A DNA stretch of 64,000 nt from Malacoraja senta. Lineage: Eukaryota. Position numbers and translations under genes: made by a program. Shown in pieces: positions 1-61,441 of this stretch; the first letter of the stretch is position 1, and every line of letters starts with the position of its first letter. Where the stretch lies: assembly GCA_038087875.1 (NCBI GenBank), contig CM075991.1:10170001-10234000 (forward strand), given 5' to 3'. The notes under the pieces were generated by a model that was not told the DNA's origin, did not search any database, and saw only the letters and a list, made by a program, of their open reading frames with translations.

Positions 1-78
1 GAGAAACTCAGCGGGTGCGGCAGCATCTGTGGAGCGAAGGAAATTGGCAACGTTCCGGGCCGAAACCCTTCTTCAGAC
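1..78 (-). mobile_element. Penelope-like pseudo-LTR fragment with a degenerate hammerhead motif (cut by the window start)
   Basis: Matches the repeat GAGAAACTCAGCGGGTGCAGCAGCATCT...AACGTTTCGGGCCGAAACCCTTCTTCAGAC seen at 15329-15421. The GAAA box is mutated. Confidence 0.7.
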
Positions 79-270
79 AATATTTCCTCGGTTGAAGGCA
101 CTCTGGGTGACCTGGAGATTATTAAAGATACTGTAAAAATATAAATCTCTCATTTGGAGGGGAATTGTGGACCACTACTGCAAAGTAAGATTCAAGGGTG
201 TTAAAGTGGCGCAAACTTTCCCTTCTTCAGATTGAATTAGTGTGAAGAAGGGTTCCGACCCAAAACGCCT

Positions 271-4226: not shown

Positions 4227-5841
4227 CAGTGGCTTGCAAAAGTTTTCATACCCCTTGAACTTTTCCACATTTTGTCACGTTACAACCACAAACGTAAATG
4301 TATTTTATTGGGATTTTATGTGATAGACCAACACAAAGTGGTGCATAATTGTGAAGTGGAAGGAAAATGATACATGGTTTTCAAATTGTTTTACAATAAA
4401 AAACTGAAAAGTGTGGCGTGCAAAAGTATTCAGCCCCCCTGAGTCAATACTTTGTAGAACCACCTTTCGCTGCAATTACAGCTGCAAGTCTTTTGGGGTA
4501 TGTCTCTACCAGCTTTGCACATCTAGAGACTGAAATGTTTGCCCATTCTTCTTTGCAAAATAGCTCAAGCTCAGTCATGGATGGAGAGCGTCTGTGAACA
4601 GCAATTTTCAAGTCTTGCCAGAGATTCTCAATTGGATTTAGGTCTGGACTTTGACTGGGCCATTCTAACACATGAATATGCTTTGATCTAAACCATTCCA
4701 TTGTAGCTCTGGCTGTATGTTTAGGGCCGTTGTCCTGCTGGAAGGTGAACCTCCGCCCCAGTCTCAAGTCTTTTGCAGACTCTAACAGGTTTTCTTCCAT
4801 GATTGCCCTGTATTTGGCTCCATCCATCTTCCCATCAACTCTGACCAGCTTCCCTGTCCCTGCTGAAGAAAAGCATCCCCACAGCATGATGCTGCCACCA
4901 CCATGTTTCACAGTGGGGATGGTGTGTTCAGGGTGATGTGCAGTGTTAGTTTTCCACCACACATAGCGTTTTGCATTTAGGCCAAAAACTTCAATTTTGG
5001 TCTCACCTAACCAGAGCACCTTCCTCCACATGTTTGCTGTGTCCCCCACATTGGCTTGTGGCAAACTGCAAACGGGACTTCGTATGGCTTTTTTTCAACA
5101 ATGGCTTTCTTCTTGCCACTCTTCCATAAAGGCCCGATTTGTGGAGTGCACGACTAATAGTTGTCCTGTGGACAGATTCTCCCACCTGAGCTGTGGATCT
5201 CTGCAGCTCCTCCAGAGTTACCATGGGCCTCTTGGCTGCTTCTCTGATCAATGCTCTCCTTGCCCGGCCTGTCAGTTTAGGTGGACGGCCATGTCTTGGT
5301 AGGTTTGCAGTTGTGCCATACTCTTTCCATTTTCGGATGATGGATTGAACAGTGCTCCGTGAGATGTTCAAAGCTTGGGATATTTTTTTATAACCTAACC
5401 CTGCTTTAAACTTCTCCACAACTTTATCCCTGACCTGTCTGGTGTGTTCCTTGGGCTTCATGATGCTGTTTGTTCACTAATGTTCTCTAACAAACCTCTG
5501 AGGCCTTCACAGAACAGCTGTATTTATACTGAGATTAGATTACACACATAGAGGACTCTATTTACTAATTAGGTGACTTCTGAAGGCAATTGGTTGCACT
5601 GGATTTTATTTAGGGGTATCAGAGTAAAGGGGGCTGAATACTTTTGCACGCGACACTTTTCAGTTTTTTATTTGTAAAAAAAATTGAAAACCATGTATCA
5701 TTTTCCTTCCACTTCACAATTATGCGCCACTTTCTGTTGGTCTATCACATAAAATCCCAATAAAATACATTTACGTTTGTGGTTGTAACGTGACAAAATG
5801 TGGAAAAGTTCAAGGGGTATGAATACTTTTGCAAGCCACTG
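4227..5841 (-). mobile_element. Full-length Tc1/mariner DNA transposon, Passport-like IR/DR family (copy 1)
   Basis: About 213-bp TIRs starting CAGTGGCTTGCAAAAG (4227-4439 and 5628-5841), each with an inner direct repeat GTGCAAAAGTATTCAGCCCCC. TA TSDs at 4225-4226 and 5842-5843. Internal transposase. Confidence 0.97.
4444..5461 (-). pseudogene. Tc1 DD34E transposase pseudogene (copy 1)
   Basis: ORF 5003..5461 (MKPKEHTRQVRDKVV...GRPPKL...ARRKPLL) plus ORF 4444..5064 (...FQQDNGPKH...SPDLNPIENLW...KGGSTKY). Lesions: +1 frameshift at about 5051, first catalytic D changed to G (WSDE to WLGE, 5005-5007), 3-nt deletion at about 4577. Confidence 0.95.
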
Positions 5842-5963
5842 TATACCAAGTATACAAACCCAAGCCAGTTAACCTACAAACCTGTTCGTCTTTGGAGAGT
5901 GGGAGGAGACCGAAGATCTTGGAGGAAACCCACGTGGTCACGGGAGAACGTATAGACTCCGCA

Positions 5964-10215: not shown

Positions 10216-10751
10216 AATAAACAGGACTTGACTTGGTAACCAGTAACTCCAGTTTCTGAGGTCACTCAGTCTCACCGGGAACTGTATCATCATTGCTGCA
10301 AGGTTTTTCCCCTCCCCAAGCAATGACCTAGATGATTATCACACATACCGACCTAGGGGCAAGGAATCAGTCAGTGTAAACAATATGCATCATGTACGTC
10401 AGACATGCTCAGCTATCAATAGCTAGGATTACCACCTAGAATCAAGCAGAGCTGTGAACACCACTGGAGTGAGTGATTCAGCTTTCTTCAACCTGCCACA
10501 AGACTAGAACCCACTTGCACGGAAACAAGAATGCTCACCTTCAAAGTAACGTCTTGACATTGTTCCTGCAAGGCCAAGTCAGCCAGTTCCTAATTAACCA
10601 AGTCTGAAGACCTGAAACGTCACCTGCCCGTTCCCTTTAAAAAATATCGTCTGACTTGCATTGTGTGCAAGTAAGATCCTCAGTAAGATGGAGACACAAG
10701 ACACTGCAGCCTGCTGGAACCTGGCGCAAAAAAGCATCTCAGTGGGTCGAG

Positions 10752-11327
<576 letters not shown>

Positions 11328-13752: not shown

Positions 13753-14470
13753 TTCAGCTGGGCACAAGGTCACGAGAGGAACTTAGAGTTGCAAAGCCTC
13801 ATTAACTTCTTGGTGTTGTTGGTTCCAGAGACTCCCAAACAGAATCGGCCCACGTGAGAGTCAACAAAAGCCATTACTCAGTGAGAGGACATTGATCAAA
13901 AAAGTTGTCTAGTCCGGGCTCCTTGTTTAAACCAGGAAACCACAATACTCCGCAATTAATAGCAGGCACACATTTACTTTGCAACCGGCTTCCCTTTCTT
14001 ACATCATCTCAATCACTTCCTGTACATTTCCACATGAGAGCTGCTACAATTGTTGTGACATTACTGGTAAGTCAACGGACTGTTGCAAAAGCATTTCACA
14101 GCAGGTCGGAATGTTTCAGAAGGAACTTCAGATGCTGGAAAATGGGAGGTAGACAAAAATGCTGGATAAACTCAGCGGGTGAGGCAGCGGTCTATGGAGC
14201 GAAGGAAATAGGTGACGTTTTTTGTCTACCTTCACTGCAGGATAGACGTAGTTAGGGCAGGTTTACACTCAAGCCCAAAGCAAGATGGGTTTCTTATGCA
14301 ATCGTCCATCAGGAGGAATCAAAAAGAACAATTTGAGTTGTGTTCTTTGCAGTTTAAAAGAATGAGGGGATCAACTTTTGAGATACATCGAGTAAACAGG
14401 CCACTGAGTCATCACCAACCACCAATCATCCCGTACACCTTGAGGAGATTTCCCAGTGGAGCTGTCAAAA

Positions 14471-14790
14471 TGTGTAGGAAGGAACTGCAGGAGTCTGAAG
14501 AAGGGTCTCGACCCGAAACGTCACCCATTTCCTTCTCTCCAGAGATGCTGCCTGTCCCGCTGAGTTACTCCAGCATTTTGTGTCTACCTTCGATTTAAAC
14601 CAGCATCTGCAGTTCTCTCCTCCACAAGGAACTGCAGATGCTGGTTTATACCGGATAGACACAAATGCTGGAGTAACTCAGTTGGCCAGGCAACATCTCT
14701 GGAGAAAAATAAGTGGTGATGTCTGACCAGAAACATCACCTATTCATTTTCTCCAAAGATACTGCCTGACCCGCTGAGTTACTCCAGCAT
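14471..14790. mobile_element. Two adjacent Penelope pseudo-LTR modules; intact hammerhead core at 14495-14522 (+)
   Basis: CTGAAGAAGGGTCTCGACCCGAAACGTC at 14495-14522. Fold-back second module at 14627-14790. Confidence 0.75.
14495..14522 (+). ncRNA. Minimal type-I hammerhead ribozyme core (predicted)
   Basis: CUGAAGA box, helix II GGGU-CUCG-ACCC, GAAA box, palindromic ACGU in place of helix III, GUC cleavage triplet. Confidence 0.65.
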
Positions 14791-15127
14791 TGGGGAAGTC
14801 CAGGACAAGGGGTTACAGCTTAAGGATAAGGGGGAAATCCTTTAAGACCGAGATGAGGAAAAACTTTTCACACAGAGAGTGGTGAATCTCTGGAACTCTC
14901 TGCCACAGAGGGTAGTTGAGGCCAGTTCATTGGCTATATTTAAGAGGGAGTTAGATGTGGCCCTTGTGGCTAAAGGGATCAGGGGGTATGGAAAGAAGGC
15001 AGGTACGGGATACTGAGTTGGATGATCAGCCATGATCATATTGAATGGCGGTGCAGGCTCGAAGGCCGAATGGCCTACTCCTGCACCTATTTTTCTATGT
15101 TTCTATGTTTCTATGTTTCTATGTCTC
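14790..15127 (+). mobile_element. CR1 LINE 3' end
   Basis: GGGAAGTCCAGGACAAGGGG...GTGGTGAATCTCTGGAACTCTCTGCC...(TTTCTATG)n. Confidence 0.9.
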
Positions 15128-15328
15128 TATCTTCAGTAGAAACCAGCATCCGGAGTTCCTCTGGTGATTTGCACATAGTTCCAGCTCCTGCAGTTCCTTG
15201 TTCCTAGATTTTAATGCAGAGACCTAACGAGTCCCAAATCTGCTTGGGTGTAGATGATTCAAGCTGTCTATATTGATCATCTGATGGATGGAATAAAATC
15301 AGTGGCCGTGCAATACAGGTAAGTGCAA

Positions 15329-15421
15329 GGTAGACAAAAGTGCTGGAGAAACTCAGCGGGTGCAGCAGCATCTATGGAGCGAAGGAAATAGGCAACGTTT
15401 CGGGCCGAAACCCTTCTTCAG
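15329..15421 (-). mobile_element. 93-bp Penelope pseudo-LTR module with an intact hammerhead core and 14-bp TSD
   Basis: 15394-15421 reverse complement is CTGAAGAAGGGTTTCGGCCCGAAACGTT. TSD ACAGGTAAGTGCAA at 15315-15328 and 15422-15435. Confidence 0.8.
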
Positions 15422-15631
15422 ACAGGTAAGTGCAATCTCAGTCAGTCAAAGTCTCTCCCCTGTCAGGGAGTTTGCAGGTTAAAGTACCAACTCCAGGTAT
15501 TTCAGAACAAAATGCGCGGTAGACACATGTACCAGTGTGGTACTGAGGTGATGTTTGTGGAATCCATTTTAAAATGGGTACTGTTTACTCTTCAAGGCAA
15601 ACAAAAAATTCCATGCAGTGATTCTCGTCAA

Positions 15632-15930
15632 CATGGTGGCGCAGCGGTAGAGTTGCTGCTTTACAGCGCTTGCACCAACAGAGACCCGGGTTCGATCCCG
15701 ACTACGGATGCTGTCTGTACGGAGTTTGTATGTTCTACCCGTGACCTGCATGGGTTTCCTCCGAGATCTTTGGTTTCCTCCCACGTTCCAAGGGCGTACA
15801 TGTTTGTAGGTTAATTGGCTTGGTATAAGTGTAAATTGTACAGAGTGTATGTTAATCTGTGGGGGTTGTTGGTTGGTGCGGACCCGGTGGGCTGCAGGGG
15901 CCTGTTTCCGCGTGTTATCTCTAAACTAAA
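15632..15930 (+). mobile_element. tRNA-derived SINE
   Basis: A box TGGCGCAGCGG, B box GGTTCGATCCC. Confidence 0.85.
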
Positions 15931-16720
15931 ATAGTATTGTGCCGACAATTAATCCCTCTGTTCTTTCGGTCGGAACTATTCCACTGGATATTAAATCCTG
16001 TGGTTGTGAGAGGGGCTATGCAAATGCAACCTTTTGGAACATGAAGGCATTGATTGCTGACACAAAAGGCTTTAGCAATTAGAATCTGCACTGCCCCAGT
16101 AAAATTAAAATCTAATTCAACGCTAGTCAAATAAGCAACATATGCTGCAACTATGGCTGATGTAATGTAAGCATTGAAACCCAGTGCTGCTCACTGTCAG
16201 AAATAATGGGACCACAGGCATGCTTCGTGCCCTCATAACAGATCATTTCACACGCTGAAAATGAAGTAAAAATTGTCTATAACCTGATCCAGATTGTGCA
16301 AGCCATACTCTCAGTAAATCTCCACCAGCAAGCGGACAATGGGAGACAAATGCATCCTTTTTCTTAGAAATAATTCAATGATAAACACGTGTGCGGTTAT
16401 TGTTGATAGCAAAGAACATTAAGGGACTGCAGCCCAGATCTCAAAATGCTGCATTTCCCAGAAACCCCAGTTAACCTTCAGTGGGAAAAGCTACAAATAA
16501 ATATTGGCAGGAAATCCTCTTTCCCCAGGACAATTTCCGATGTATCCAGATGACCACTAGAATGGCCAAGGCATAGAAGGCTTCACGATTAGTACAGATA
16601 GATATTTGGTGGTCAGCCTGGATGCGGTGGGTGAAAGAATCCGTGTCGATGATTTTGGGAGTAAAATTATGTTTCCTTGCAAAACTTCCGTTTATTCAGC
16701 AACTCAGTTTCCACATAAAG

Positions 16721-20160: not shown

Positions 20161-20194
20161 TTCTATGAGGAACAACTGAAAATGATTTTAAATC

Positions 20195-20294
20195 ATCAGT
20201 CTGAAGAAGGGTCTCGACCCGAAACGTCACCTATTCCTTCGCCCCACAGATGCTGCCTCACCCGCTGAGTTTCTCCAGCATTTTTGCCTGCCTT
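20195..20294 (+). mobile_element. Penelope pseudo-LTR module; intact hammerhead core at 20201-20228
   Basis: CATCAGT-CTGAAGAAGGGTCTCGACCCGAAACGTC-ACCTATTCC. Confidence 0.75.
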
Positions 20295-22216: not shown

Positions 22217-22472
22217 AGATAGACACAAAAAGCTGGAGTAACTCAGCGGGACAGGCAGAAACTCTGGAGAGAAGCAATGGGAGATGTTTTGGGTCAGACT
22301 GAAGAAGGGTCTCGACCCGAAACGTCACCCATTCCTTCAGTCTGAAGAAGGGTCTCGACCCGAAACGTCACCTATTCCTTCTCCCCAGAGATGCTGCCTG
22401 CCCCGCTGAGTTACTCCAGCTTTTTGTGTCTATCTACGGTTTAAACCAGCATCTGCAGTTCCTTCCTGCACA
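22217..22472. mobile_element. Fold-back Penelope pseudo-LTR module with two tandem intact hammerhead cores
   Basis: Identical CTGAAGAAGGGTCTCGACCCGAAACGTC at 22299-22326 and 22342-22369. Imperfect flanking repeat CATTA(T/C)AAGA at 22207-22216 and 22477-22486. Confidence 0.8.
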
Positions 22473-23668: not shown

Positions 23669-23789
23669 AAAAATTCATACTGCAGATAGACACAAAATGC
23701 TGGAGTAACAGCCGGTCAGGCAGTATCTCTGGAGAGAAGGAATAGGTGACGTTTTGGGTCGAGACCTTTCTTCAGACTGCTCATACTGA

Positions 23790-24650
23790 CTTGACAAAGG
23801 ACAAAGGACATTTATTGTCACGTACATGAATTGGTGCAGTGAAATTTGAGTTGCCATTGCAGCACACCAATAAAAATAAAACACAACATTAGAGAATTTA
23901 ACATAAAACATAAAAACATAAGACATCCCCCCACAATGGTTCCCACTGTGAGGGAAGGCAGCAAAGTACAGTCCTCTTCCTCTTGTTCACCCGTGGTCGG
24001 GGCCTATTGAGGCCTCCGCAGTCGCCGCGACAGCAGCCCGATGCTGCAGGCCCTCTCGCCGGATGATGGAGCTCCGGCGTCGGGAGAACACTCTTCAGCG
24101 GCTCGGAGTGTCTGGAACGGCCGCTTGCTGCCAGAGACCGCGGCTCCCGAAGTCCACAGGCCACGATGGTCAGAGCTCCAACACTGGCGATCTCGGAGAG
24201 AGAGATCCCAGGCTCCGCGGTGTTTAAACTCAGCGCCTCCCCGCAGCTGGACGCTCCGCGACCACAGCTCCGCGATGTTGGAGTCGGCGGTCTCAGCACT
24301 CCGGAGCTTACCACACGGCGACCCGGGTAAGGCATCGCCCGCTCTGCGCTGGTACTTCAGCGCTGCGCCGCCGCCGAAGCTGAAGTTCTGGCCGGTCCCG
24401 GCAGGAAACGCCGCTCCAGTCCCGATGGTAGGCCGCGAGGAAGGGGCGAAGTTGCGGCTCGGAGAAGACGCATCTCCGACCAGGTAGGGACTGAGAAAAA
24501 CGGTTTCCCCCTTCCCCCCCCCCCCCACCCCCCACATAAAAAGTCTAGACCTCCAAAACAAAAACTTATTAACACACTAAAAATAAAAAAAGGGGTGAAA
24601 GGACGAACCTGCAGGCAGGGCAGCCATACTCGACGGCGCCCCCACTCGAA
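23790..24650 (-). mobile_element. GC-rich non-coding retroelement with Rex1-like 5' and 3' ends (putative non-autonomous)
   Basis: Minus strand begins GGGGGCGCCGTCGAGTATGGCTGCC and ends TTTCACTGCACC...GTGACAATAAATG(TCCTTTG)n. CpG-rich interior with no recognisable protein. Confidence 0.5.
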
Positions 24651-25089: not shown

Positions 25090-25275
25090 TGTATGAAGAA
25101 ACTGCAGATGCTGGTTTAAACCGAAGATAGACACAAAATGCTGGAGTAACTTAGCGGGACAGGCGGCATCTCTGGAGAGAAGGAATGGGTGATGTTTCGG
25201 GTCGAGCCCCTTCTTCAGACTGAGTCAGGGGGAGAGGGAGATACAGAGGCAAGGAAGTGTGAGGTGTGAAAACGA
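25090..25275 (-). mobile_element. Penelope pseudo-LTR with adjacent 3'UTR (mutated hammerhead)
   Basis: Consensus match. Confidence 0.7.
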
Positions 25276-25295
25276 GACAACAGTTTATCTCTGTT

Positions 25296-25436
25296 CAAGA
25301 AGAAACTGCAGATGCTGGAGAATCGAAGGTAGACAAAATTGCTGGAGAAACTCAGCGGGTGCGGCAGCATCTATGGAGCGAAGGAAATATTTCCTTCGCT
25401 CCGCACCCGCTGAGTTTCTCCAGCAATTTTGTCTAC
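25296..25436. mobile_element. Short fold-back Penelope-derived module lacking the hammerhead, with an 18-bp TSD
   Basis: Palindromic centre AAGGAAATATTTCCTT. TSD CAACAGTTTATCTCTGTT at 25278-25295 and 25437-25454. Confidence 0.75.
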
Positions 25437-25639
25437 CAACAGTTTATCTCTGTTTGTTTTCTGATCTGAGTCAAGTCAAGTCAAGTTTATTCGTCACATA
25501 CACATACGAGATGTGCAGTGAAATGAAAAGTGGCTACGCTCACGGACGTTGTGCAAAAAACAAACAAACAAACAAACAAACTACAAACAGAATGGAACAG
25601 AATCACATATTCTTTCACATATTAAATATTGTATGGTAC

Positions 25640-27334: not shown

Positions 27335-27680
27335 ATCGAGGGGGATGTCAGCTCCCTGCGCCGGGCGATCTGACCCCGGGTCGGGGCTTCTGCGCCGTTT
27401 AGAGCTTCCCGACATCGGTCTCTGCCCGAGACTGCGAGCTCCTCGACGGTGAAGTCCGCAGGTCGCGCGGTTGGAGCGTCGATCCCAGGCTCCGATGGTA
27501 AGTCCACGTCCCCGCGGTGGGGCTCACAGTCAGTCCCGAGCAAGGCCGCCAGCTCCACGATATTAGGCCGCAGAGCGACCGGAGATACCACCGGAAAACA
27601 ATCGCATCTCCGGCAAGGTAAGAGATTGAAAAATAGTTTCCCCCGACCCCCACCCCCACCCCCACTCTTACAGTCTTGCA
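27335..27680 (-). mobile_element. Partial relative of the GC-rich element at 23790-24650
   Basis: Shares CGCATCTCCG.CA.GGTA.G.GA.TGA.AAA..GTTTCCCCC-(C-rich) with 24470-24535. Confidence 0.5.
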
Positions 27681-28260
27681 CCCACATACACACTCACACA
27701 CACTCTCTTACACACAAACTCACTAACACACAAACAAATGTACAGACACGCACACTTTTACACACCCGCTCTTACACAGACTTACACTCACATACACACA
27801 CACACTCTCACACACACACACACTCTCACTCACACACGCACACTCTCACACACACGCTCTCACGCACGCACACTCTCACACACGCACACTCTCACACACA
27901 CGCACACGCTCACACACGCACACTCTCACACACACACTCACTCACGCACACTCTCACACACGCACACTCTCACACACGCACACTCTCTTACACACAAACT
28001 CACTAACACACAAACAAACGTACAGACATGCACACTTTTACACACCCGCTCTTACACACCTTTACACACACACATACACTGTTATGCACAATCACACACA
28101 TGCACACTCACACACACTTACACACACTTACACACAATCTCACACACACGCACACTCTCACACACACACTCACTCTCCACACACACTGTTACACACAATC
28201 TCACTCACACACACCCAATTTTACACACCCACGCTTACACACTTTTACACACACACACAC
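27680..28260. repeat. Compound (CA)n/(CACT) microsatellite with an internal duplication of about 75 bp
   Basis: Directly visible. The unit CACACTCTCTTACACACAAACTCACTAAC... occurs at about 27700 and 27980. Confidence 0.95.
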
Positions 28261-29569
28261 ATATTATTTTCATTAAAAATTCCAGGCGCTGATTTACTGA
28301 TGGAGAAGATGTCTTGGTTTTAAAATAAGAATGCGAGTTGTCGCAGATAGATTTCTTTGTTCCTGCTGTTTTGGGGCAAAGTTAAAATGCTGCTGACGTG
28401 GGTGTATTTAATGCACCACTTCAGGCTGTCGGGACCGAGGATGTCGTTTGCAAGGAGATAACTGCTGACTACGCCACATTGAAAGAGATTAGCACCTCAG
28501 ACTAAGCCCCAGCTGCAAACAGAATCAAAATCCATATTTTAAACCAGCGGAGAGTTTCCAGTCTCTGGTGATTAGTATTTTCAGGACATGGTAAATGAAG
28601 TGGACCTGAAGGAGATCGAGCTCACAGATTTATTGGCAGTGTTTCCATTTTCATCACTGTCAGCATATTTTTCCCCCTGGTTGGTCTCTGCGATAACAAG
28701 TTATCCACTGTGCCTTGCCCAAGTTCATAAGTTGTAGGTGTAGAATTAGGCCATTCGGCCCATCAAATCTTTAAGGTGAGGAAGAGAGACATGGAGCAAA
28801 TGTGGGCAGGAGGCTAGTGTAACTGGGCAAGTTGGGCCGATGAGCCTGTTTCCACACTGTATCACTCTATGACTCTATCACCATCTACATCTCAAATTTG
28901 TCTTTCCCCTGACTACCAGTCCGAAGCAGGGTCTCGACCCGAAACGTCACCTATTCCTTTCCTCCAGAGATGCTGTCTGGACCGCTGAGTTACTCCAGCT
29001 TTTCGTGTCATTCTTCCTTCTTGTTGTCTAACTCAGATAATTCTGGACAATGTGGTGTTGATGCTGCCCAGCTCACCACCAGCTCCGCTCTATGATCTAT
29101 GATCTTTGACCACCACCACCAACACCATTCTCTATCCTCCAGGGGCTCTCCTGGCTGGTTAAGAACTCCCCTACAGGTGTCCATAAAAGAGCAGCCTCGA
29201 CTACAGTTCGCAACTGCAGAAGCTTAAAGAGCAGAGCCCTCAGTAGAAGTTCAGTAGTCACCGCAGTTTCACAAGCAGCCACCCCCACAGTTTTAATTAG
29301 TTCAACCATGGCCCTTGCAAGGGACAAAGCCATTCAATGCTGGAGGAACTCAGCGGGTCAGGCAGCATCTGTGGAGGGAATGAATAGGTGACATCTTGGT
29401 CGGGTTTGTACTACTTTGTGTCTCCATTTCTAGCACCTAACATTTTCCAAAATGGTGTATTACTAAACTTTGCAAACTAATTGTTCTCTGTAACTTGTCA
29501 AAAAGGTGCAAGTGCAAACGAAAGGGTGGTGTATTTACACTAGGTGAGTGTAGGTACTGTGCGGGTGCT

Positions 29570-29934
29570 GTGTAGGTCTGTGTATGTGTGTATGTATGTG
29601 TGTATATGTGTGTGCATGTGTGTGTGTGTATGTGTGTGTGTAGGTGTATGTGTGTGTATATGTGTATGTGTGTGTGTGTATGTATGTGTATGTATGTGTG
29701 TGTGTAGGTGTGTGTATGTGTGTGTGTATGTGTATGTGTGTGTATGTGTGTGTATATGTGTGCATGTATGTGTGTGTGTAGGTGTGTGTGTGTGTATGTG
29801 TGTGTAGGTGTGTGTGTGTAGGTGTGTGTATGTGTATGTGTGTGTGTGTGTGTATGTGTATGTGTGTGTGTATATGTATGTGTGTGTGTGCATCTGTGTG
29901 TGTGTGTACATCTGTGTGTGTGTGTGTGTGTATA

Positions 29935-29977
<43 letters not shown>

Positions 29978-30040
29978 ATCTGTGTGTGTGCGTCTGTGTG
30001 TGTACGTCTGTGGGTGTGTGTCTGTGTGTGTGTGTGTATA

Positions 30041-30079
<39 letters not shown>

Positions 30080-30203
30080 ATCTGTGTGTGTGCGTCTGTG
30101 GGTGTGTGTGTACATCTGTGTGTGTGTGTGTGTGTATATGTATGTGTGTGTGTGTGTACATCTGTGTGTGTGCGTCTGTGGGTGTGTACGTTTGTGGGTG
30201 TGC

Positions 30204-30241
<38 letters not shown>

Positions 30242-30410
30242 ATCTGTGTGTGTGCGTCTGTGTGTGTACGTCTGTGTTTGTACGTCTGTGGGTGTGTGTC
30301 TGTGTGTGTGTGTCTGTGTGTGTGCGTCTGTGTGTGTGCGTTTGTGTCTGTGTGTGTGTGTGTGCGTATATCTGTGTGTATGTGCGTATATTTATGTGGG
30401 TGTGATGGTG
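29570..30410. repeat. Compound (TG)n/(TGTA) microsatellite
   Basis: Directly visible. Confidence 0.97.
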
Positions 30411-30727
30411 CGTGTACTGAGTGAGAGCGCTGTGTGAAAGAAGAGGAACCAGCACCTGTCTGACGCAGCCTTGAATACAAAATGGAAAGAGCTGCTCAGA
30501 GGGAGACCAAGTCTGATGTGTCAGGAACTTGGCAGTGAACTCCAGCGAGTGCCAGAGTCAGTGATTATTCCATGTGACAGGGATGCATTCAGGAACAGAT
30601 TGTTGCCAGTCAGTCCCCATCAATCAGCCTCCCAAAATGGAAGAAAAGTCAAACTTTGAAAGGCACGATGCGGGTGTTAGACTGAGACCACCATCACGTG
30701 ATGGAAACTGTTCTGAGGACCAGATTA

Positions 30728-31143
30728 CCAGCTCCGGCACTGACCCCTGGCCCACTTCTCCAGCTCCGGCACTGACCCCTGGCCCACTTCTCCAGCTCCA
30801 CCACTGACCCCAGGCCCACTTCTCCAGCTCTGCCACTGACCCCTGGCCCACTTCTCCAGCTCCGCCACTGACCCCAGGCCCACTTCTCCAGCTCCACCAC
30901 TGACCCCTGGTCCACTTCTCCAGCTCCGTAACTGACCCCTGGCCCACTTCTCCAGCTCCGTAACTGACCCCTGGCCCACTTCTCTAGCTCCGTAACTGAC
31001 CCCTGGCCCACTTCTCCAGCTCCATCACTGACCACAGGCCCACTTCTCCAGCTCCGTAACTGACCCCTGTCCCACTTTTCCAGCTCCGCCACTGACCCCT
31101 GGCCCACTTCTCCAGCTCCGTCACTGACCCATGTCCCACTTCT
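30728..31143. repeat. Minisatellite, 13 x 32 bp (CCAGCTCCnnnACTGACCCCTGGCCCACTTCT)
   Basis: Exact 32-bp period counted from 30728 to 31143. Confidence 0.95.
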
Positions 31144-31329
31144 CCTTATTACACCCTTCTGTGCTCCCTTGAGACCTACAATTTTTTGCTTCCACTTCGG
31201 TTTGGTGGGCGCTGAGATGAGTGACCAGGGCAATGTGGGAACAGAGACACTTGCGCAAGAGATGCCTGACTGGATGGATGGGGTTTGTGAGGTGGTACAC
31301 TCCTGCCTTCATTTAATTAGTGCGCCACT

Positions 31330-31690: not shown

Positions 31691-32685
31691 CTTTCGCCAC
31701 TTCCGCCATTTGATTAGCACGGGTGTCGGGGTAATGGGGAGAAGGCAGGAGAATAGGGTTAAGAGGGAAAGATAGAGAAAGAATGGCGGGAGTAGACTTG
31801 ATGGGCTGAATGGCCTAATTCTGCTCTCATCACATGAACTTATTTACACTTGGTTTCTTTGAGCCTCCGTGACTCAAGGACACAACGGTTCCCAGAACCA
31901 TCGCACGTGTATCTTCATGTTGAAGAGTCATGAGCCAGGAGTTGGGAGCAACATTGTAGCTTTTCCCATGGAGATTTGGAGAACATTCTTCAATCCTCAT
32001 CTCTATCCAGCAGATTTAAAAAAATGTTTTTTACTATTGTCACATCTTACTAATATTACATGAACAAACTTTTTTTTTTGCACGCTATGCAAACAGATCA
32101 GAGTAATTGGAGATAGATACAATCGTCAAACTCAAATACAATAGGTAAAGCAAAGGGGAAGCTGCAGACTACAGATCTCAGCATCGTAGCGCATCAGTTC
32201 CATAAACTTCGTCCAATTTGACCTCAATGGGGTAGAGAAGTTGTCAAACACAATTTCCCTTTCATAAAACCATGTCGCTGCTGCTTAATAGTATTATGAT
32301 TGAGTAAATCCCTGGTAGCTCTCACTAAATCGTAGACGTTTTCCCAATGTTTGATTGATACTGTCCCATTAAACGCTTCCATGTCTATTCTTTCCCCTGA
32401 AAGGTTAGCATGCAGCAAAAAGCTTTTCACTGTAGCTCGGCACACATGACGATAAACAAATTATTAATTATTATATGAATTCTTATATATTCTATCCTAT
32501 TATAATCTTTTATATAATATTAATTAAATTATATTAATTATTTAAAATGATAGTATATTATATTATGTTAATACACTAAGATAAACCAGCATCTGCAGTT
32601 ACTACTTCAACTAAACTAATGTCAGGCTAACTGCTTCCTGCTTCCCATCTCTCTCTTTTATTGCCCATAGATTTTCCAATCCACA

Positions 32686-32872
32686 GATCGACACAAAAAG
32701 CTGGAGTAACTCAGCGGGACAGGCAGCATCTCTGGAGAAAAGGAATGGGTGACGTTTCGGGTCGGGTCTCGAAACGTCACCCATTCCTTCTCTCCAGAGA
32801 TGCTGCCTGTCCGCTGAGTTACTCCAGCTTTGTGTGTCTATCTTCGGTTTAAACCAGCATCTGCAGTTCCTT
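32686..32872. mobile_element. Fold-back Penelope pseudo-LTR module (hammerhead CUGA box lost at the fold)
   Basis: Near-perfect inverted arms around GACGTTTCGGGTCGGGTCTCGAAACGTC. Confidence 0.75.
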
Positions 32873-33088
32873 CTTGCAAACTCCAACCCACAGAGAGGGC
32901 TTTCCAGAGGAATTCCAAGGAATTTTGGAAGGCCACAACCACACTCCTCTTTCACTGCCCCCCCTCCCTTTGTCCCTGTGAGTCTGAAGAAAGGCCCCCG
33001 ACCCAATCTATCTTCTCATCCATGTTCCCCAGGGACGCTGGCTGACCCGTTGAGTTACTCCATCACTCTGTGTCCATCCCTGTAACTA

Positions 33089-34686
33089 CAGTGGCTTGCA
33101 AAAGTATTCATACCCTTTGAACTTTTCCACATTTTGTCACGTTACAACCACAAACGTAAATGTATTTTATTGGGATTTTATGTGATAGACCAACACAAAG
33201 TGGCGCATAATTGTGAAGTGGAAGGAAAATGATACATGGTTTTCAAATTTTTTTACAAATAAAAGACTGAAAAGTGTCACGTGCAAAAGTATTCAGCCCC
33301 CTTTACTCTGATACCCCTAAATAAAATCCAGTGCAACCAATTGCCTTCAGAAGTCACCTAATTAGTAAATAGAGTCCACTTGTGTGTAATCTAATCTCAG
33401 TATAAATACAGCTGTTCTGTGAAGGCCTCAGAGGTTTGTTAGAGAACATTAGTGAACCAACAGCATCATGAATACCAAGGAACACACCAGACAGGTCAGG
33501 GATAAAGTTGTGGAGAAGTTTAAAGCAGGGTTAGGTTATAAATAAATAGCCCAAGCTTTGAACATCTCACGGAGCACTGTTCAATCCATCATCCGAAAAT
33601 GGAAAGAGTATGGCACAACTGCAAACCTACCAAGACATGGCCGTCCACCTAAACTGACAGGCCGGGCAAGGAGAGCATTGATCAGAGAAGCAGCCAAGAG
33701 GCCCATGGTAACTCTGGAGGAGCTGCAGAGATCCACAGCTCAGGTGGGAGAATCTGTCCACAGGACAACTATTAGTCGTGCACTCCACAAATCGGGCCTT
33801 TATGGAAGAGTGGCAAGAAGAAAGCCATTGTTGAAAAAAAGCCATAAGAAGTCCTGTTTGCAGTTTGCCACAAGCCATGTGGGGGACACAGCAAACATGT
33901 GGAGGAAGGTGCTCTGGTCAGATGAGACCAAAATTGAAGTTTCTGGCCTAAATGCAAAACGCTATGTGTGGCGGAAAACTAACACTGCACATCACCCTGA
34001 ACACACCATCCCCACTGTGAAACATGATGGTGGCAGCATCATGCTGTGGGGATGCTTTTCTTCAGCAGGGACAGGGAAGCTGGTCAGAGTTGATGGGAAG
34101 ATGGATGGAGCCAAATACAGGGCAATCTTGGAAGAAAACCTGTTAGAGTCTGCAAAAGACTCACCTTCCAGCAGGACAACGACCCTAAACATACAGCCAG
34201 AGCTACAATGGAATGGTTTAGATCAAAGCATATTCATGTGTTAGAATGGCCCAGTCAAAGTCCAGACCTAAATCCAATTGAGAATCTCTGGCAAGACTTG
34301 AAAATTGCTGTTCACAGACGCTCTCCATCCAATCTGACTGAGCTTGAGCTATTTTGCAAAGAAGAATGGGCAAACATTTCAGTCTGTAGATGTGCAAAGC
34401 TGGTAGAGACATACCCCCAAAAGACTTGCAGCTGTAATTGCAGCGAAAGGTGGTTCTACAAAGTATTGACTCAGGGGGGCTGAATACTTTTGCTAGCAAC
34501 ACTTTTCAGTTTTTTATTTGTAAAAACATTTGAAAACCATGTATCATTTTCCTTCCACTTCACGATTATGCACCACTTTGTGTTGGTCTATCACATAAAA
34601 TCCAATAAAATACATTTACGTTTGTGGTTGTAACGTGACAAAATGTGGAAAAGTTCAAGGGGTATGAAAACATTTGCAAGCCACTG
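33089..34686 (+). mobile_element. Full-length Tc1/mariner DNA transposon, Passport-like IR/DR family (copy 2)
   Basis: About 213-bp TIRs starting CAGTGGCTTGCAAA, with inner direct repeats. TA TSDs at 33087-33088 and 34687-34688. Nearly identical to copy 1. Confidence 0.97.
33468..34469 (+). pseudogene. Tc1 DD34E transposase pseudogene (copy 2)
   Basis: ATG at 33468. Nonsense TAA at 33543-33545, 19-bp deletion after 34160, +1 C at about 34416. Catalytic residues are present: WSDETK, QQDNDPKH, then NPIE 34 residues after the second D. Confidence 0.95.
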
Positions 34687-35118: not shown

Positions 35119-35577
35119 GTTTAGATTAGAGATACAGCATGGAAACAGGCCCTTCGGCCCACCGAGTCCACGCCGGCCATCGATCGCCCGTTCACACTAG
35201 TTCTATGTTATCCCACTTTCACATCCACTCCCGAACCCGTGGGGGCAATTTTGCGTTTAAGAAGGAACATGCAGATGCTGGAAAATCAAAGGTACACAAA
35301 AATGCTGGAGAAACTCAGCGGGTGCAGCAGCATCTATGGAGCGAAGGAAATGGGCAACGTTTCGGGTCGAAACCCTCCAATTTTGCGACAGGAAGAATTA
35401 ACCTACAAGCCTGCACGCCTTCGGGAGGCGGGAGGAAACCGGAGCACCCGAGGAAACTCACACGGTCACGGGGAAAACGTGCAAAAACTCCACACCGACA
35501 GTACTGGTGGTCGGGATCGAACCCGGGGTCTCCGGCGCTGTGTGGCAGCTGCTCTACCACCTGTACCACTGGGCCAC
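35119..35577 (-). mobile_element. tRNA-derived SINE interrupted by a TSD-flanked Penelope pseudo-LTR module (35256-35377)
   Basis: TSD CAATTTTGCG at 35246-35255 and 35378-35387. Confidence 0.8.
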
Positions 35578-40051: not shown

Positions 40052-40730
40052 TAGACAAAACATGCTGGAGTAACACAGCAGGTCAGCCAGCATCGCTGGA
40101 GAACTTGGGTTGGTGATCTGGTTGAGAGGCAGAGAGGTTGAACAAAGGCCAGAGATAAAAGCAGAAGGTATGAGATGGAAGGATTGAAGAGTTGAAAATT
40201 GTGAAGGACATTCCAGAGGAAGGAATGTCGGGAAGAAATAGGTGTGTCCAGGAGGGGCTCATGGGCAGGAGAGAAAACTGGGGCAAGGGGGGAGGTGATT
40301 GAGGTTACCTAAGAGTGGAGAATTCAACCCGTTGGGTTGTAAGCTAACCAAGTGGACTATTTGGTGTTGTTTGCATAGATAATTTGGCAATGGAGGAGAC
40401 CCAGGACAGAAAACTCAGGAAGGGAATGGGAAGGAGAGTTTAAATGGTTGGAAAGCGAAAGTTCCATTTGGCCTTCCTGGACCAAGCCCAAGTGTTCAGC
40501 CAAAAGGTTGCCAAGTCTATGCTTGGTCTCGCCGATGTACAGGAAACCATTGGGAACACCGGATGCAGCAGATGAGGTTAGAGGAGGTGCACGTGAACTT
40601 CTGACTCACCTGGAAGGAACGCTGTGGTCCCTGGATGGAAGCGAGGGAGGAGGTATTACACCTCCTGTGGTTGCCTGGGGAGGGGGGTGGTTTGGGTGGG
40701 AAGGGCTGAGTGAACCAAGGAGTACTCAGG
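40052..40730 (-). mobile_element. Degenerate Penelope-like element: GIY-YIG endonuclease remnant plus 3' end
   Basis: Minus-strand translation SIQGPQRSFQVSQKFTCTSSNLICCIRCSQ/(frameshift)/LYIGETKHRLGNLLAEHL matches the PLE GIY-YIG pattern (NxIYxIxCxxC..YIGET..RL..EH). Pseudo-LTR sequence follows at 40052-40105. Confidence 0.8.
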
Positions 40731-44192: not shown

Positions 44193-45732
44193 TTCAGTGT
44201 ACGGATACAGGATAAAGGGAATAACGTTTGGCGCAAGATGAAGTCCAGTAACGTCCGATTAAGTGTTGTCCAAAGGTCTCCAATGAGGTAGTTGGTAGGT
44301 CAAGACCGCTCATGAGTTGGTGATAGGATGGTTCACTTGCCTGATAACAGCTGGGAAGAAACAGTCCCTGAATCGGGACAGAATCCGGTTGCTGCCTCGC
44401 AGCGGCAGAGATCCCGGTTCCATCCAGACTCCGGGCCCGTGCGGAATTTGTACGTTCTCCCTGTGACTGCGTGGGTTTTCTTCGGGTGCTCCGGTTCCCT
44501 CCCACACGGTCACAGGGAGAACGTACAAACTCTGTGCAGTCAGCACCCAAGGTCAGGATTAGTAGCTTAACCTATGATGAGGTTTTGACGGCACTGGGCC
44601 TGTGCTCGCTGGAGTTGAGAAGAATGAAGGGGACCTCGTTGAAACGTACAGAATAGTGAAAGGCCTGGATAGAGTGGATGTGGAGAGGATGTTTCCACTA
44701 ATGGAAGAGTCTAGGACTAGAGGGTTATAGCCTCGGAATTAAAGGACGTTCTTTCAGGATCGAACCCGGGACTCTGGCGCTGGGAGGCCGCAACCTCTAC
44801 CGCTGCGCCACCCGCCAACGCCGTTGTGAACCCGTGGCAATGCAGCGTGCACACGCATGTTGCATGTGGCCACTATTTGTTTGCTGTTACTATGCCAGGC
44901 CAATAGGTGTCTCTCTCAGGCTGTTTCCATGCACTTGCCAATTCATTCCTGCCTCGATACTTCTGAGCTGCGTCTCGAATTGATCAATGGTTTCAGAGAT
45001 GATGCTAAGTCAACCCTCCCATTTGGCAAGGAAATAAACAGTGTAAACCATCCCATGGTCCACATGACCTGAATGGAAATGCAAAGCACTTTGTAGTCTA
45101 ACGTAATAGTCTGATGCGACAAGAGTCAACGTGTTAGGTAGACAAAAATGCTGGAGAAACTTAGCGGGTGAGGCAGCATCTATGGAGCGAAGGAATAGGT
45201 GACGTTTTGGGTCGAGACCCTTCTTCAGACTGATGTGGGGGTGGAGGGGGGAGGGAAGAAGAAAGGAAGAAAGGAAGAGGCGGAGACAGTGGGCTGTGGG
45301 AGAGTCATTGTCTTGATCAGTAACGTTGTCAGGAGTTATGGGGCAAAGGCGGGAGAATGGGACTGGGAGGGAAAGATGAATGAATGGCGGAGTAGGCTTG
45401 ATGGGCCGAATGGCCAAATTCTGCTCCTAGAACATATCGAACTAAAACTAACAAAATGGCCTCTTTTGAGAGAACTGTGGCAACAGACTGGTTCCACCAA
45501 GATGCAGGACAGAACGCCACAGGAGATCCTTCTTCCCTGTGGCTATCAAACTGTACAACTACTCCCCCTTCTGTCGTGGGGTAGACTGACTTACCCCCCC
45601 CCCCCCCCCCCAATCTTTGAACATCCCCAATCCTTTCCACCCATCACTTTAATTTCATGTTGCAAGTATTTTGTATTTCATGACTGTAGGCAATTTCCCT
45701 CCTGGGATGAATAATGTTATATCATATCATAT

Positions 45733-46692: not shown

Positions 46693-47492
46693 ATGTGTGG
46701 ATGATCTGGTTAGTGGTCCTGATTAGTGACGTTGTCCGAAGTTATGGGGAAAAGGCAGGAGAATGGGTTTGAGAGGGAAAGATGATTGAAAAGAATAGGT
46801 GACGTTTTGGCTCAGAACCCTTCTTCGGATTCTGGTTCCGACCCGAAACGTCACCTATTCCTTTTCTCCAGAGATGTTGCCTGACTCACTGACTTCAGCT
46901 TTTTGTGTCTCTCTTGCGGGCATTTTGTCATTTGGATTAAAAGCACAGCTAAGTAGAAATGGCTGTGACTTATTTAAATGAAATTGTTGAATCCCAAACT
47001 CCCACGTATTGTCCAGACTACCCTGCTGTTTGTCTCAGCAAGTTAATTGGGCAGTCTGATGTTAGTGAGCTGAAGGGCTCCATGTTTCAATGCTGATGCG
47101 CTTTAATCCTTTATAAACAAAAGAAAATCCTGCTTGATAGAGATTCCATTTTATTCTTGGCTGCTCCATTGTCCGTCCAACCTCAGACCTCCCCCAACCA
47201 GTCAATGGTAACAGAACATGATGTCTGAACGTGTTGGAAGGAACTGCAGATGCTGGTTTACACCGAATAGCCACAAAAGACTGGAGTAACTCAGCAGGAC
47301 TCTGCCTCAGAGGGCGGTGGAGGCAGGTTCTCTGGATGCTTTCAAGAGAGAGCTAGATAGGGCTCTTAAAAATAGCGGAGTCAGGGGATATGGGGAGAAG
47401 GCAGGAACGGGGTACTGATTGGGGACGATCAGCCATGATCACATTGAATGGCGGTGCTGGCACGAAGGGCCGAATGGCCTACTCCTGCACCT

Positions 47493-47745
47493 GTGTTTAA
47501 GAAGGAACTGCAGATGCTGGAAAATCGAAGGTATACAAAAAAGCTGGAGAAACTCAGCGGGTGCAGCAGCATCTATGGAGTGAAGGAAATAGGCAACGTT
47601 TCGGGCCGAAACCCTTTCGGGTTTCGGGCCGAAACGTTGCCTATTTCCTTCAGTCTGAAGAAGGGTTTCGGCCTTAAACGTTGCCTATTTCCTTCGCTCC
47701 ATAGATGCTGCTGCACCCGCTGAGTTTCTCCAGCTTTTTTGTGTA
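47493..47745. mobile_element. Multiply folded Penelope pseudo-LTR module inserted into a CR1 tail (47300-47776) with a 15-bp TSD
   Basis: TSD CCTACTCCTGCACCT at 47478-47492 and 47746-47760. Confidence 0.8.
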
Positions 47746-48740
47746 CCTACTCCTGCACCTATTGTCTATTGTCTATTGGGACATGGAGCATCTCTAGAGA
47801 GAAGGGATGGGTGAAGTTTTGCGTCGAGACCCTTCTTCAGACTCGGGGGGGGGGGGGGGGGTAAAGGGAAACGATAGATATAGATGGTGATGTAGAGAGA
47901 TATAGAGCAAATGAATGAAAGAATGCAGGAAAGAACTGCATATGCTGGTTTAAATCGAAGGTAGACACAAAATGCTGGAGTAACTCAGCGGGACAGGCAG
48001 CATCTCTGGAGTGAAGGAATGGATCACAAATGAATGAAAGATATGCAAAAATGTAACGTGATGAAAGGGAACTGGCCATTGTTCGCAGAGGCCTAGGTGA
48101 AAATGAGTTACAGACAATGAGACTCAACAAGACGGCTTTGAAGCTGGTACAATAACTTGGGTGGGGAAGGGACGGAGAGAGAGGGGTTGCAAGGGTTACT
48201 TGAGGTTAAAGAAATCCACAGGCTAGCCGGGACGAGGTCATCACACGCTTTCATCAAGTCTGAATGCCCAGACGCCACATGCTGCTTGTAGAGCTGCTCG
48301 ATTAGCATTCGCCGTAGAGAAGCCTGCAGTAACTCTGCCATAATCATTAATCTCTCCAAGAGCCAGCCCTGGTGCAGGAAGCAATGTCTGTCATCGACAC
48401 CAGCTCGCAGATAAACATTAAGCAGGCCTGCCAGCCTGGATGGCATTGACACCGACACATTCTAACACACGCTGCCTTTCACTTTCTTAACCCTCTTCCT
48501 CAGGCCCCGACCCGAAACGTCACCTATCGATGTTGAGTCTAAAGAAGGTGTCCCAACTCAAAATATTACCTATCAACATTGAGTCTAGATAGATAGGTCT
48601 CTTAAAGATCAGGGGATATGGGGAGAAGGCAGGAATGGGGAACATCAGCCAAGATCACGTTAAATGGCGGTGCTGGCTCGAAGGGCCAAATAGCCTACTC
48701 CTGCACCTATTGTCTATTGACTATTGAGTCTAATGATGGA

Positions 48741-57956: not shown

Positions 57957-58353
57957 TCCAGTACGGAGGGGGTGGGGGGGGGGGATAGGCAGTTGGGAGG
58001 GGATCTATCTCCCTGTCGGTTTGCTCCTGGGCCTGGCCAAGATGGCCGTTCACGAATCCAGGTAGAGGGCCGTCGAGGGATTGAGCCCAAGTGGACTGCC
58101 GCGTGAGTGAGTGAGATGGAACAAAGTTGAACCCGGCGTGGGGGGGCCGCCGTGAGGGAGGGGGAGGGGGGGAGAACAGAGGGGGACCTGGCACGAATAC
58201 TTGGTAACATCGTCAGTGCCCTTTATGTGGCCACTATTTGCATACCTTGGGTATCCAAGCAATGAATAAAGTATTCATTCATTCAGATACAAGCTGTGCG
58301 GGTCCGCATGTGACCAGGCTTGGACACATGGCTGAGCAGGAATACAAACAGTT

Positions 58354-58770
58354 TGTTTAAGAAAGAACTGCAGATGCTGGAGAAATCAAAGGTAGACAAA
58401 AACACTGGAGAAACTCAGCGGGCGAGGCAGCATCTATGGAGCGAAGGAATAGGTGACGTTTTGGGTCGAGACCCTTCTTCAGACTGATGTGGGGGTGGGG
58501 GGGGGGCGGGAAGAAGAATGGAAGAGGCGGAGACAGTAGGCTGTGGGAGAGCTGGGAAGGGGAGGGGAAGGATGGAGAAAGCAGGGACTACCTGAAATTG
58601 GAGAAGTCAATGTTCATACCGCTGGGGTGTAAACTGCCCAAGCGAAATATGAGGCGCTGCTCCTTCAATTTGTGGTGGGACTCACTCTGGCCATGGAGGA
58701 GGCCCAGGACAGAAAGGTCAGATTGGGAATGGGAGGGGGAGTTGAAGCGCTGAGCAACCGGGAGATCAGG
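58354..58770 (-). mobile_element. Penelope-like element 3' end: GIY-YIG C-terminus, 3'UTR and pseudo-LTR
   Basis: 58764-58588 translates LPVAQRFNSPSHSQSDLSVLGLLHGQSESHHKLKEQRLIFRLGSLHPSGMNIDFSNFR*. It is contiguous with the hammerhead-bearing repeat (core at about 58455-58482, GAAA changed to AAAA). Confidence 0.85.
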
Positions 58771-59136
58771 CTGGCACTTGGCACATTGTGAGAGTGGGCA
58801 CTGTTGCCGTTGACTGAGATGTCCGAGTTGTTAACGGGATCATTAGATGCAGGGGTGGAAGTAGATGGCTGCTGCATTGGTGGGAAGCCAACATTGCTGG
58901 CTAATCCCAGTGCTGAGTGTTCGGTGTTCCTTGCAAGTTACGTTTCTGAGTGGCCTGAGCGATGCGGTGGCGAGGAAAGGGATTACTATCTGTTGGTTAC
59001 ATCTCACTCTGTGGGCTCTGAAGTTGTCGAAACAGCATGAAGCCATTTCTGTAGCTGCTCACACAGATCTCCCAGTGACAACAGTGTTTCCCTTTAGATA
59101 GTGAATGGTGCAACAAACTAACGCCACGTGCTGTGT

Positions 59137-61117: not shown

Positions 61118-61441
61118 ATTCCCAATCTGACCTTTCTGTCCTGGGCCTCCTCCATTGTCAGAGGGAGGCCCAGCGCAAATTGGAGGAACAGCATCTCATA
61201 TTTCGCTTGGGCAGTTTACACCCCAGCGGTGTGAACATTGACTTCACTAACTTCAAATAGCCCTTGCTTTCTCTCTCCATCCCCTCCCCTTCTCCCACTA
61301 GTCTTAATCTCCCCGCCTACATTCTATCTTTGTCCCGCCCCCTCCCCTGACATCAGTCTGAAGTCTCGACCCGAAACATCGCCCATTCCTTCTCTCCAGA
61401 GATGCTGCCTCACCCGCTGAGTTACTCCAGCATTTTGTGTG
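61118..61441 (+). mobile_element. Penelope-like element 3' end: GIY-YIG C-terminus plus pseudo-LTR
   Basis: 61120-61260 translates SQSDLSVLGLLHCQREAQRKLEEQHLIFRLGSLHPSGVNIDFTNFK*. A pyrimidine-rich UTR and a partly deleted hammerhead follow. Confidence 0.85.

Follow-up and report, generated by a model that had tools for sequence, protein, structure and literature searches.

How a retroelement piece of only 93 bp, with no open reading frame, came to sit between two perfect copies of its target, and what set its two ends, is the question raised by positions 15329..15421 (minus strand) of the 64-kb stretch of DNA analysed here, hereafter the window. This tail-less piece of a Penelope-like pseudo-LTR is flanked by identical 14-mers at 15315..15328, beside the element's 3' end, and 15422..15435, beside its 5' end; the identity can be extended on neither side, and the 14-mer has no further occurrence on either strand of the 64-kb window. 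Element numbering follows its own strand and takes the C of the CUGA box as +1 (window position 15421, minus strand), with 0 and negative numbers upstream. The insert accordingly runs from +1 to +93: its first 28 nt are a hammerhead core and the other 65 nt are downstream pseudo-LTR (15329..15393, minus strand). An earlier note on this DNA had claimed a 93-bp unit within a perfect 14-bp target site duplication, opening at the CUGA box; its coordinates were exact, and the minus-strand insert does open with CUGAAGA. Two nucleotides match the element at each junction, GT (-1, 0) on the 5' side and TT (+94, +95, the first two element-strand bases of the adjacent target copy) on the 3' side, and these microhomologies leave 93-97 nt attributable to the element and 10-14 nt to the duplicated target. 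When 150 random positions were searched for repeats in the same way, 6 of them scored at least 14 and 2 scored 7-9, in a window that holds long simple or tandem repeats (10700-11260, 27630-28300, 29440-30560 and 30610-31210, the last with a 32-bp-period array of ~19 units at 30610-31209).

Contigs of four public runs (X1, X2, X3 and X6; 24 runs were listed for 15119-16715) were aligned to positions 15125-15631. X1 and X2 come from organism A, probably the window's own species, and gave no contig over the unique flanks in a table from which a filter omits records. A 403-base contig of X3 (organism B, record 17) places its letters 234-403 on 15129-15314 and its letters 29-233 on 15422-15626, joining the flanks contiguously with a skip of 107 bases (93 + 14) and a single target copy; the two flanks are supported by 170 and 205 letters, and the right one has 11 differences in 205 bases. 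A 339-base contig of X6 (organism C, a separate study) covers 15428-15626 with 9 differences and 1 gap, and differences at equal depth imply that its left piece ends at 15320 with the same 107-base skip, the joint itself being absent from the best 15 of the 43 joint-table rows. Because the empty site holds a single target copy, this is a true insertion, and because both relatives are empty, it postdates the split of the window's lineage from these two. The earlier note's view of a short unit inserted as such, and its suggestion to look for the empty site in relatives, were thereby borne out: X3 is empty, X6 is empty by implication, and neither of the two relatives whose contigs cover the flanks has a longer Penelope-like element at the orthologous locus.

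The target itself contains a splice-donor-like 9-mer, CAG/GTAAGT, at 15316..15324 (plus strand), whose second copy, at 15423-15431, now lies 107 bases away; these are the window's only perfect occurrences on either strand. The insert supplies an antisense pyrimidine run and an AG four bases before the GT of the second copy, a layout that might resemble a recursive splice site. A 21-codon frame at 15254-15316 precedes the donor-like motif, and no solved relative of it was found; its ATG is missing from both relatives, with a 4-base gap within it in X3, and 149 long frames of unique sequence (of 222 in the window) gave no host-gene domain in Pfam. A conserved coding exon before the motif was rejected, given the lost ATG and the lack of a host-gene domain. 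Adjoining the locus at 15632-15940, and at about a dozen similar places, lies a tRNA-headed SINE-like repeat, presumably of the family HE1. Further off, two Tc1/mariner transposase copies in opposite orientation (4767-5843 and 33087-34161), with HTH_Tnp_Tc3_2 and DDE_3 domains in separate frames, are 98-99% alike over ~1.1 kb and represent a recent expansion, and a plus-strand frame at 6647-7246 matches Pfam ALKBH8_N (E 6.5e-07); we take the latter to be probably a retroelement-derived piece.

A BLAST search with three real copies as references returned 64 pieces in the window, of which 62 were kept and two excluded (24511-24537, which is a C-run, and 40385-40443, a piece of ORF end lacking pseudo-LTR). 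The longest sister copy (58353..58772, minus strand) matches the insert at 82 of 93 aligned bases and carries the 60 last codons of a GIY-YIG-type ORF (58591-58770), ~105 nt of 3' UTR, the hammerhead, the pseudo-LTR and the tail. Its 60-residue ORF-end peptide, itself without a Pfam match, shares 71-80% identity with four skate protein records, and at E up to 0.001 its relatives number 301. Among 11 longer relatives that were scanned, 8 gave GIY-YIG, mostly near or below the Pfam cut-off, and three (P0066, P0099 and P0147) also RVT_1 upstream of it, most scores again lying near or below the cut-offs; a C-x4-C-x2-C linker was recognised by eye in P0004, P0066 and P0147. Since the sister copy is collinear with an ORF end whose relatives carry GIY-YIG, the insert is, judged from sequence, the 3' pseudo-LTR end of an abundant Penelope-like (EN+) element, in agreement with the membership that the earlier note had assigned. 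A CX2-5CxxC linker between reverse transcriptase and endonuclease is given as a mark of Neptune in PMC8557442, and the clade is probably Neptune, an assignment drawn from the linker motif in homologous proteins rather than from a reverse transcriptase tree. The 64-kb window holds no full-length element, no copy bearing the reverse transcriptase and none reaching the linker. Between 34,096 and 57,474 contigs per run align to the surveyed stretch, nearly all on the 93 bases, a measure of abundance that is not a copy number. Seven window fragments, about 95-97% alike to the insert, form its subfamily. Penelope-like endonuclease ends are also annotated within skate host proteins, namely a neuromedin-U receptor, a receptor-transporting protein, a DUF4518 protein and an unnamed NYAP-domain protein (P0001-P0004, P0058), which are either gene-model errors or exonised element ends.

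The insert's minimal type I hammerhead core (15394..15421, minus strand), with predicted cleavage, was recognised from a descriptor match, from pair counts on 13 copies and from features described in PMC4209133. Its elements follow one another as CUGAAGA (15415-15421), an unpaired A, helix II (15402-15413), GAAA (15398-15401) and C-G-U-U, that is, a loopless palindromic helix III with a GUU triplet (15394-15398), all on the minus strand. The 3' strand of helix I, 2 bp long, lies at 15392..15393 (minus strand), and its partner GT at 15422-15423 is part of the target duplication and equals the element's own -1 and 0; helix I is also 2 bp in copies retaining native upstream sequence. A longer helix I through distal pairing was rejected, the registers differing by eye between subfamilies. 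The descriptor for minimal hammerheads (boxes, extra base before helix II, G10.1-C11.1, palindromic 15.2-16.2 and NUH triplet) was matched by 9 of 26 candidate starts, the insert among them. Over 13 copies, 93.4% of 106 cells were paired, compared to at most 48.6% in slid controls; the pairing did not exceed that of shuffles (310/500), giving no support from covariation, and three Watson-Crick pairs have changed to G-U pairs in the insert's subfamily. Rfam gave 0 matches at gathering in the whole window and, at E up to 10 across 14300-15700, no hammerhead among 17 matches; the insert does not fit a canonical type I hammerhead, which has a ~6-bp helix I, a looped helix III, loop 1-loop 2 contacts and an Rfam gathering score. 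The lowest-energy fold pairs +6..+11 with +36..+41 (-10.6 vs -4.3 kcal/mol for helices I and II), placing +41 at the base of an alternative hairpin, and folding showed no unusual stability (z about +0.3 to +0.5). What the earlier note called an intact hammerhead core is thus intact in its conserved nucleotides but not in its helices: helix I has only 2 bp, with its 5' strand in the duplicated target, helix III is loopless, and Rfam has no match. For minimal motifs of this kind the literature describes weak cutting, in dimers or aided by protein (PMC4209133, PMC11167929).

The predicted cut falls between 15394 and 15393 (+28/29), where neither end of the insert lies. Because the insert spans this site, a linear cleaved RNA was not the template for this copy; such a monomer is excluded as its source by the presence of +1..+28. 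The 3' ends of the 62 fragments form two groups, 22 at +88..98 and 24 at +122..132 (the latter bounded by the length of the reference copies), with 0 at +99..121 and 16 below +88. This two-ended distribution agrees with the optional 30-40 nt tail of Penelope-like elements (PMC8557442, PMC3846280), an interval reported to lie between two internal reverse-transcription start sites (PMC11167929). The insert ends at +93 to +95, the family's tail-less boundary, and its pseudo-LTR stops where the tail starts in other copies; since this is the upstream start site, the 3' end would be set by the enzyme's start and not by the ribozyme. The idea that the ribozyme defines the inserted unit was accordingly not supported: the cleavage site coincides with neither end, an ordinary family boundary forms the 3' end, and 65 of the 93 bases are non-ribozyme.

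For the 5' ends, the genome-wide breakpoint histogram proposed earlier was replaced by the 62 window fragments together with contig tables of the four runs. Ten fragments start at -8 or beyond (to -269, the reference limit), 15 at -7..0, 14 at +1..12, 7 at +13..24, 1 at +25..32, 9 at +33..60 and 6 further, with ends in +4..+24 being softer, as alignments of old copies fray. Of the 46 ends in -7..+60, 15 fall within 8 of 68 positions (binomial p = 1.6e-4, for a range chosen post hoc and with composites that are not independent), and 1 lies within 3 bases of the cut vs 4.7 expected under an even spread. In a reference-free upstream comparison (26 starts, 32981 left out), copies starting at -7..0 shared at most 7 upstream bases, except where they abut another family piece. 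Six of these 15 ends are free-standing (1-78, 15327, 20194, 23683, 53292 and, doubtfully, 32981) and 9 are composite junctions. The pile-up at the edge of the CUGA box (15/62) and the recurrence of junctions indicate that truncation was not uniform, consistent with the non-uniform breakpoints foreseen in the earlier note. Loose contig ends also cluster at 15327-15329 and 15422-15423 but were not counted as breakpoints, since true element ends are mixed there with copies that simply continue. In the insert's subfamily the seven 5' ends lie at -4, -1, -1, +7, +8, +9 and +33, so none of 7 reaches beyond -4, vs 10 of 40 others that extend further upstream, a difference that is not significant (Fisher p = 0.32).

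The insert is not singular: 5 other free-standing window copies start at -6..-1, and stubs of other lengths also carry target duplications, which bound pieces with 5' ends near -247, -3, -1, +8 and +30. One sister stub of another subfamily (23683..23779, minus strand) spans -3..+95, tail-less, with an 8-bp duplication; a second (20194..20294, plus strand) spans -6..+96, likewise tail-less, with no duplication of at least 7 bp found. Within the insert's own subfamily, 35255..35376 (minus strand) runs from +8 to +130 with tail and a 10-bp duplication, and the composite 47495..47748 sets +7..+130 head to head with +9..+41 and -4..+95 inside a 15-bp duplication. The longer tail-less copy 61118..61440 (plus strand; about -247..+89, 10-bp duplication) shows that some copies extend beyond the hammerhead as far as the ORF end. 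Three more composites have duplications, at 25293-25437 (18 bp), 32681-32875 (13 bp, 1 mismatch) and 59133-59327 (8 bp).

The junctions inside composites recur. A joint of +40/41 to -3 was found independently in two subfamilies, at 22337 and 47650, and again in runs X1 and X2, where the intervening letters differ; a joint of +41 to +8 was present in all four runs with the letters between varied; and head-to-tail repeats of the whole 95-nt module occurred in 2, 2, 4 and 7 contigs of the four runs. The hammerhead alone stands in tandem at 22294-22380 and 47619-47695 with a 34-43 nt period (+41 to -3 or +8), and such tandems could be a source of the dimer that a minimal hammerhead needs. Other arrangements were seen as well. 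A four-piece composite at 14472-14791 has head-to-head and tail-to-tail joints, and hairpins of inverted pieces give spurious microRNA matches in Rfam (14574-14784). At 47445-47790 and 53292-53560, pieces are nested with 3' ends from a LINE-like family of repeats that we take to be CR1-like; the 15-bp duplication of 47495-47748 sits inside such a 3' end, and the hammerhead start at 53310 is cut off at +15. In longer copies a pyrimidine tract ends in CAG one base 5' of CUGA, like a 3' splice site (58483-58520, 45229-45260, 60021-60045 and 25219-25245 on the minus strand; 28900-28920 on the plus strand), and the 5' side of helix I is where an intron ends in Drosophila virilis Penelope (PMC4209133). 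An origin of the stubs from spliced templates is not supported, as most keep the AG and share no first exon.

The best explanation, which we hold with moderate confidence, is that a Penelope-like element (probably Neptune) supplied the reverse transcriptase and GIY-YIG endonuclease, and that these made a very short copy from an ordinary element transcript that the hammerhead had left uncut. Staggered nicks 10-14 bp apart, presumably made by this endonuclease, would have given rise to the duplication seen against the empty site. The nicked target end, AA, would then have primed on the UU at +94/+95, the upstream one of the two internal starts, giving a tail-less copy; the 3' boundary is directly visible, and the priming is proposed by extension from PMC11167929. 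Copying would have passed through the hammerhead and ended at a preferred point just 5' of CUGA, where the ends pile up, and the cause may be a halt of the enzyme or run-off where the transcript's upstream pseudo-LTR begins. The 5' end would have been joined via the GT microhomology, whose letters are present at the junction and whose role is assumed, and the outcome would be a passive stub with a hammerhead whose cutting would require a dimer or help from protein. In other retroelements, jumps between templates favour the ends of RNAs. Several published observations are compatible with these steps: the Penelope promoter and start lie in the upstream pseudo-LTR (PMC2377424), uncut RNA is the main substrate and product length follows the template 5' end (PMC11167929), and head-to-head and tandem composites are known layouts of Penelope-like elements (PMC3846280, PMC8557442). 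The graded range of 5' ends, the two 3'-end groups and the target duplications on variously truncated pieces speak for this explanation. Against it, the 5' pile-up is sharper than plain loss of processivity predicts, and a dedicated short RNA would fit it equally; 0 of 7 subfamily fragments reach upstream of -4 (p = 0.32) and no full-length element lies in the window; and the window peptide has no Pfam match, most relatives' GIY-YIG matches being below cut-off.

A related, more tentative possibility is that a genuine RNA end, not a stall, lies a few bases 5' of CUGA. Either a ~135-nt transcript or the full transcript's 5' pseudo-LTR would start there and be copied fully from either internal start, after which the enzyme would jump (to +41 or +93) or fold back. 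If so, these genomes would hold a very abundant, ribozyme-bearing, SINE-like Penelope derivative of <140 nt, insertion ends would record the element's RNA start, and the recurrent 34-43 nt hammerhead tandems would regenerate a dimer for the minimal hammerhead.

The explanation that competes most closely with a truncated copy of an ordinary transcript, though we consider it unlikely, is a dedicated short RNA, non-autonomous and spanning about -4 to +132, that solo modules would express from an internal pseudo-LTR promoter and that would be copied in trans like a SINE; copying to the RNA 5' end would give a fixed boundary, with the enzyme jumping template position on run-off. It would account for the pile-up at -7..0, with 6 of 15 ends free-standing (one doubtful) and 9 of 15 at junctions, and for the +40/41 to -3 joint in two subfamilies, X1 and X2 as well as the whole-module head-to-tail repeats in four runs. 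It also has precedents in the internal promoter of the Penelope pseudo-LTR (PMC2377424), in pseudo-LTRs that suffice for mobilisation in trans (PMC3846280) and in the non-autonomous Chlamys elements (PMC8557442). However, a single fixed end is at odds with a second group of 5' ends at +4..+12 (14/62) and with the spread of the first over 8 positions; 10 of 62 fragments extend further upstream, the subfamily difference being not significant (p = 0.32), and a full transcript would yield the same product in cis through run-off from its upstream pseudo-LTR.

We give little credence to a retrozyme route, in which tandems are transcribed and cut as hammerhead dimers, and a ~95-nt circle is copied once from the +93 start, so that the cleavage site is hidden inside the insert and one round of copying stops near -1. 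Tandem joints of the whole module do exist in contigs of four runs, subfamilies share the fold (93% of 106 cells paired), and vertebrate retrozymes related to Penelope-like pseudo-LTRs, with monomer derivatives, have been described (bioRxiv 10.64898/2026.07.22.740005). Yet tandems are rare (2-7 contigs among 34,096-57,474 per run, though contigs collapse repeats), and no whole-module tandem occurs among the 62 window fragments; the tail-bearing copies 14492, 19353 and 22337 have the same 5' boundary, which one circle leaves unexplained; and helix I has 2 bp while the lowest-energy fold buries the core in another hairpin (-10.6 vs -4.3 kcal/mol). Animal retrozymes are moreover described with canonical hammerheads and units of 170-400 nt (PMC7229834), and 8 of 9 frog dimers were uncleaved in vitro (bioRxiv 10.64898/2026.07.22.740005).

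Equally improbable, in our view, is that a longer element or a module tandem inserted and later collapsed by recombination between direct pseudo-LTRs to leave one unit. The empty relatives are compatible with a loss inside the window's own lineage, and some solo pseudo-LTRs have been ascribed to recombination or deletion, but the solos of PMC3846280 are described without target duplications, and this insert directly adjoins two perfect ones. The site is empty, not longer, in both relatives, and recombination between 93-bp repeats would be needed at most loci, since short stubs outnumber long copies in the window. A chance repeat or assembly artefact is hardly credible, given the single-copy empty site in X3, the one implied in X6 and a 14-mer unique in the window.

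Compared with known systems, the single locus is ordinary, one of many stubs of an already described kind, because dispersed minimal hammerheads from truncated Penelope-like elements have been known since 2014: most such motifs are dispersed and single, and probably derive from truncated Penelope-like elements (Cervera and de la Pena 2014, PMC4209133). The insert's hammerhead shares with them the boxes, the unpaired A before helix II, G10.1-C11.1 and the loopless C-G helix III. Its helix I has 2 bp, as in the Drosophila virilis variant, vs 4-5 bp in the minimal hammerheads of PMC4209133, and its helix II 4-5 bp vs 7-8; the triplet is GUU in the insert's subfamily and GUC in sister subfamilies. 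As far as the available text of PMC4209133 goes, insertion ends and empty sites are unmapped and no cartilaginous fish is named. A literature search, which misses most subscription journals, found no published map of the 5' ends of Penelope-like elements relative to the hammerhead.

The family resembles the non-coding animal non-LTR retrozymes (PMC7229834; bioRxiv 10.64898/2026.07.22.740005) in lacking coding capacity in the insert, in its type I hammerhead, in its kinship with Penelope-like pseudo-LTRs and in its dispersed monomers. Retrozymes, in contrast, are defined by a hammerhead in at least two consecutive tandem units and by circular RNA, whereas this locus holds a monomer, a lone 93-bp unit with a minimal motif that is collinear with an ORF-bearing element. 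The bioRxiv preprint covers pseudo-LTR-related vertebrate monomers, one chondrichthyan included, and our family may already be within its chondrichthyan retrozyme families or within the supplementary alignments of PMC4209133.

Closer likenesses are found among the Neptune-clade elements (Craig et al. 2021, PMC8557442; Arkhipova et al. 2013, PMC3846280), which are described with direct and inverted pseudo-LTRs, strong 5' truncation, partial tandems, head-to-head pieces, an optional tail, 5'-junction microhomology and GIY-YIG at the C terminus; target duplications are 7-18 bp here vs 8-10 bp there, and the insert has no ORF. In the Poseidon element PAc of Anolis carolinensis (Frangieh et al. 2024, PMC11167929), two 3' ends likewise lie 30-40 nt apart downstream of the hammerhead, and the use of uncut RNA as template and priming without long homology, reported there, are proposed here from the letters of the insertions. 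PAc belongs to another clade, while the relatives of our family have a Neptune-type cysteine linker, and a 5' pile-up at the hammerhead is not among the PAc features given in the available text of that study. The value of the locus is that of a clean record of mechanism, combining a dated insertion, its empty site, 3' ends in two sharp groups and piled-up 5' ends. That the pile-up stands at the edge of the hammerhead and not at its cut suggests in vivo copying of uncut RNA, with the ribozyme's 5' edge as a preferred end, which bears on how insertion is completed, where the pseudo-LTR comes from and what the hammerhead is for, questions raised in PMC11167929 and PMC8557442.
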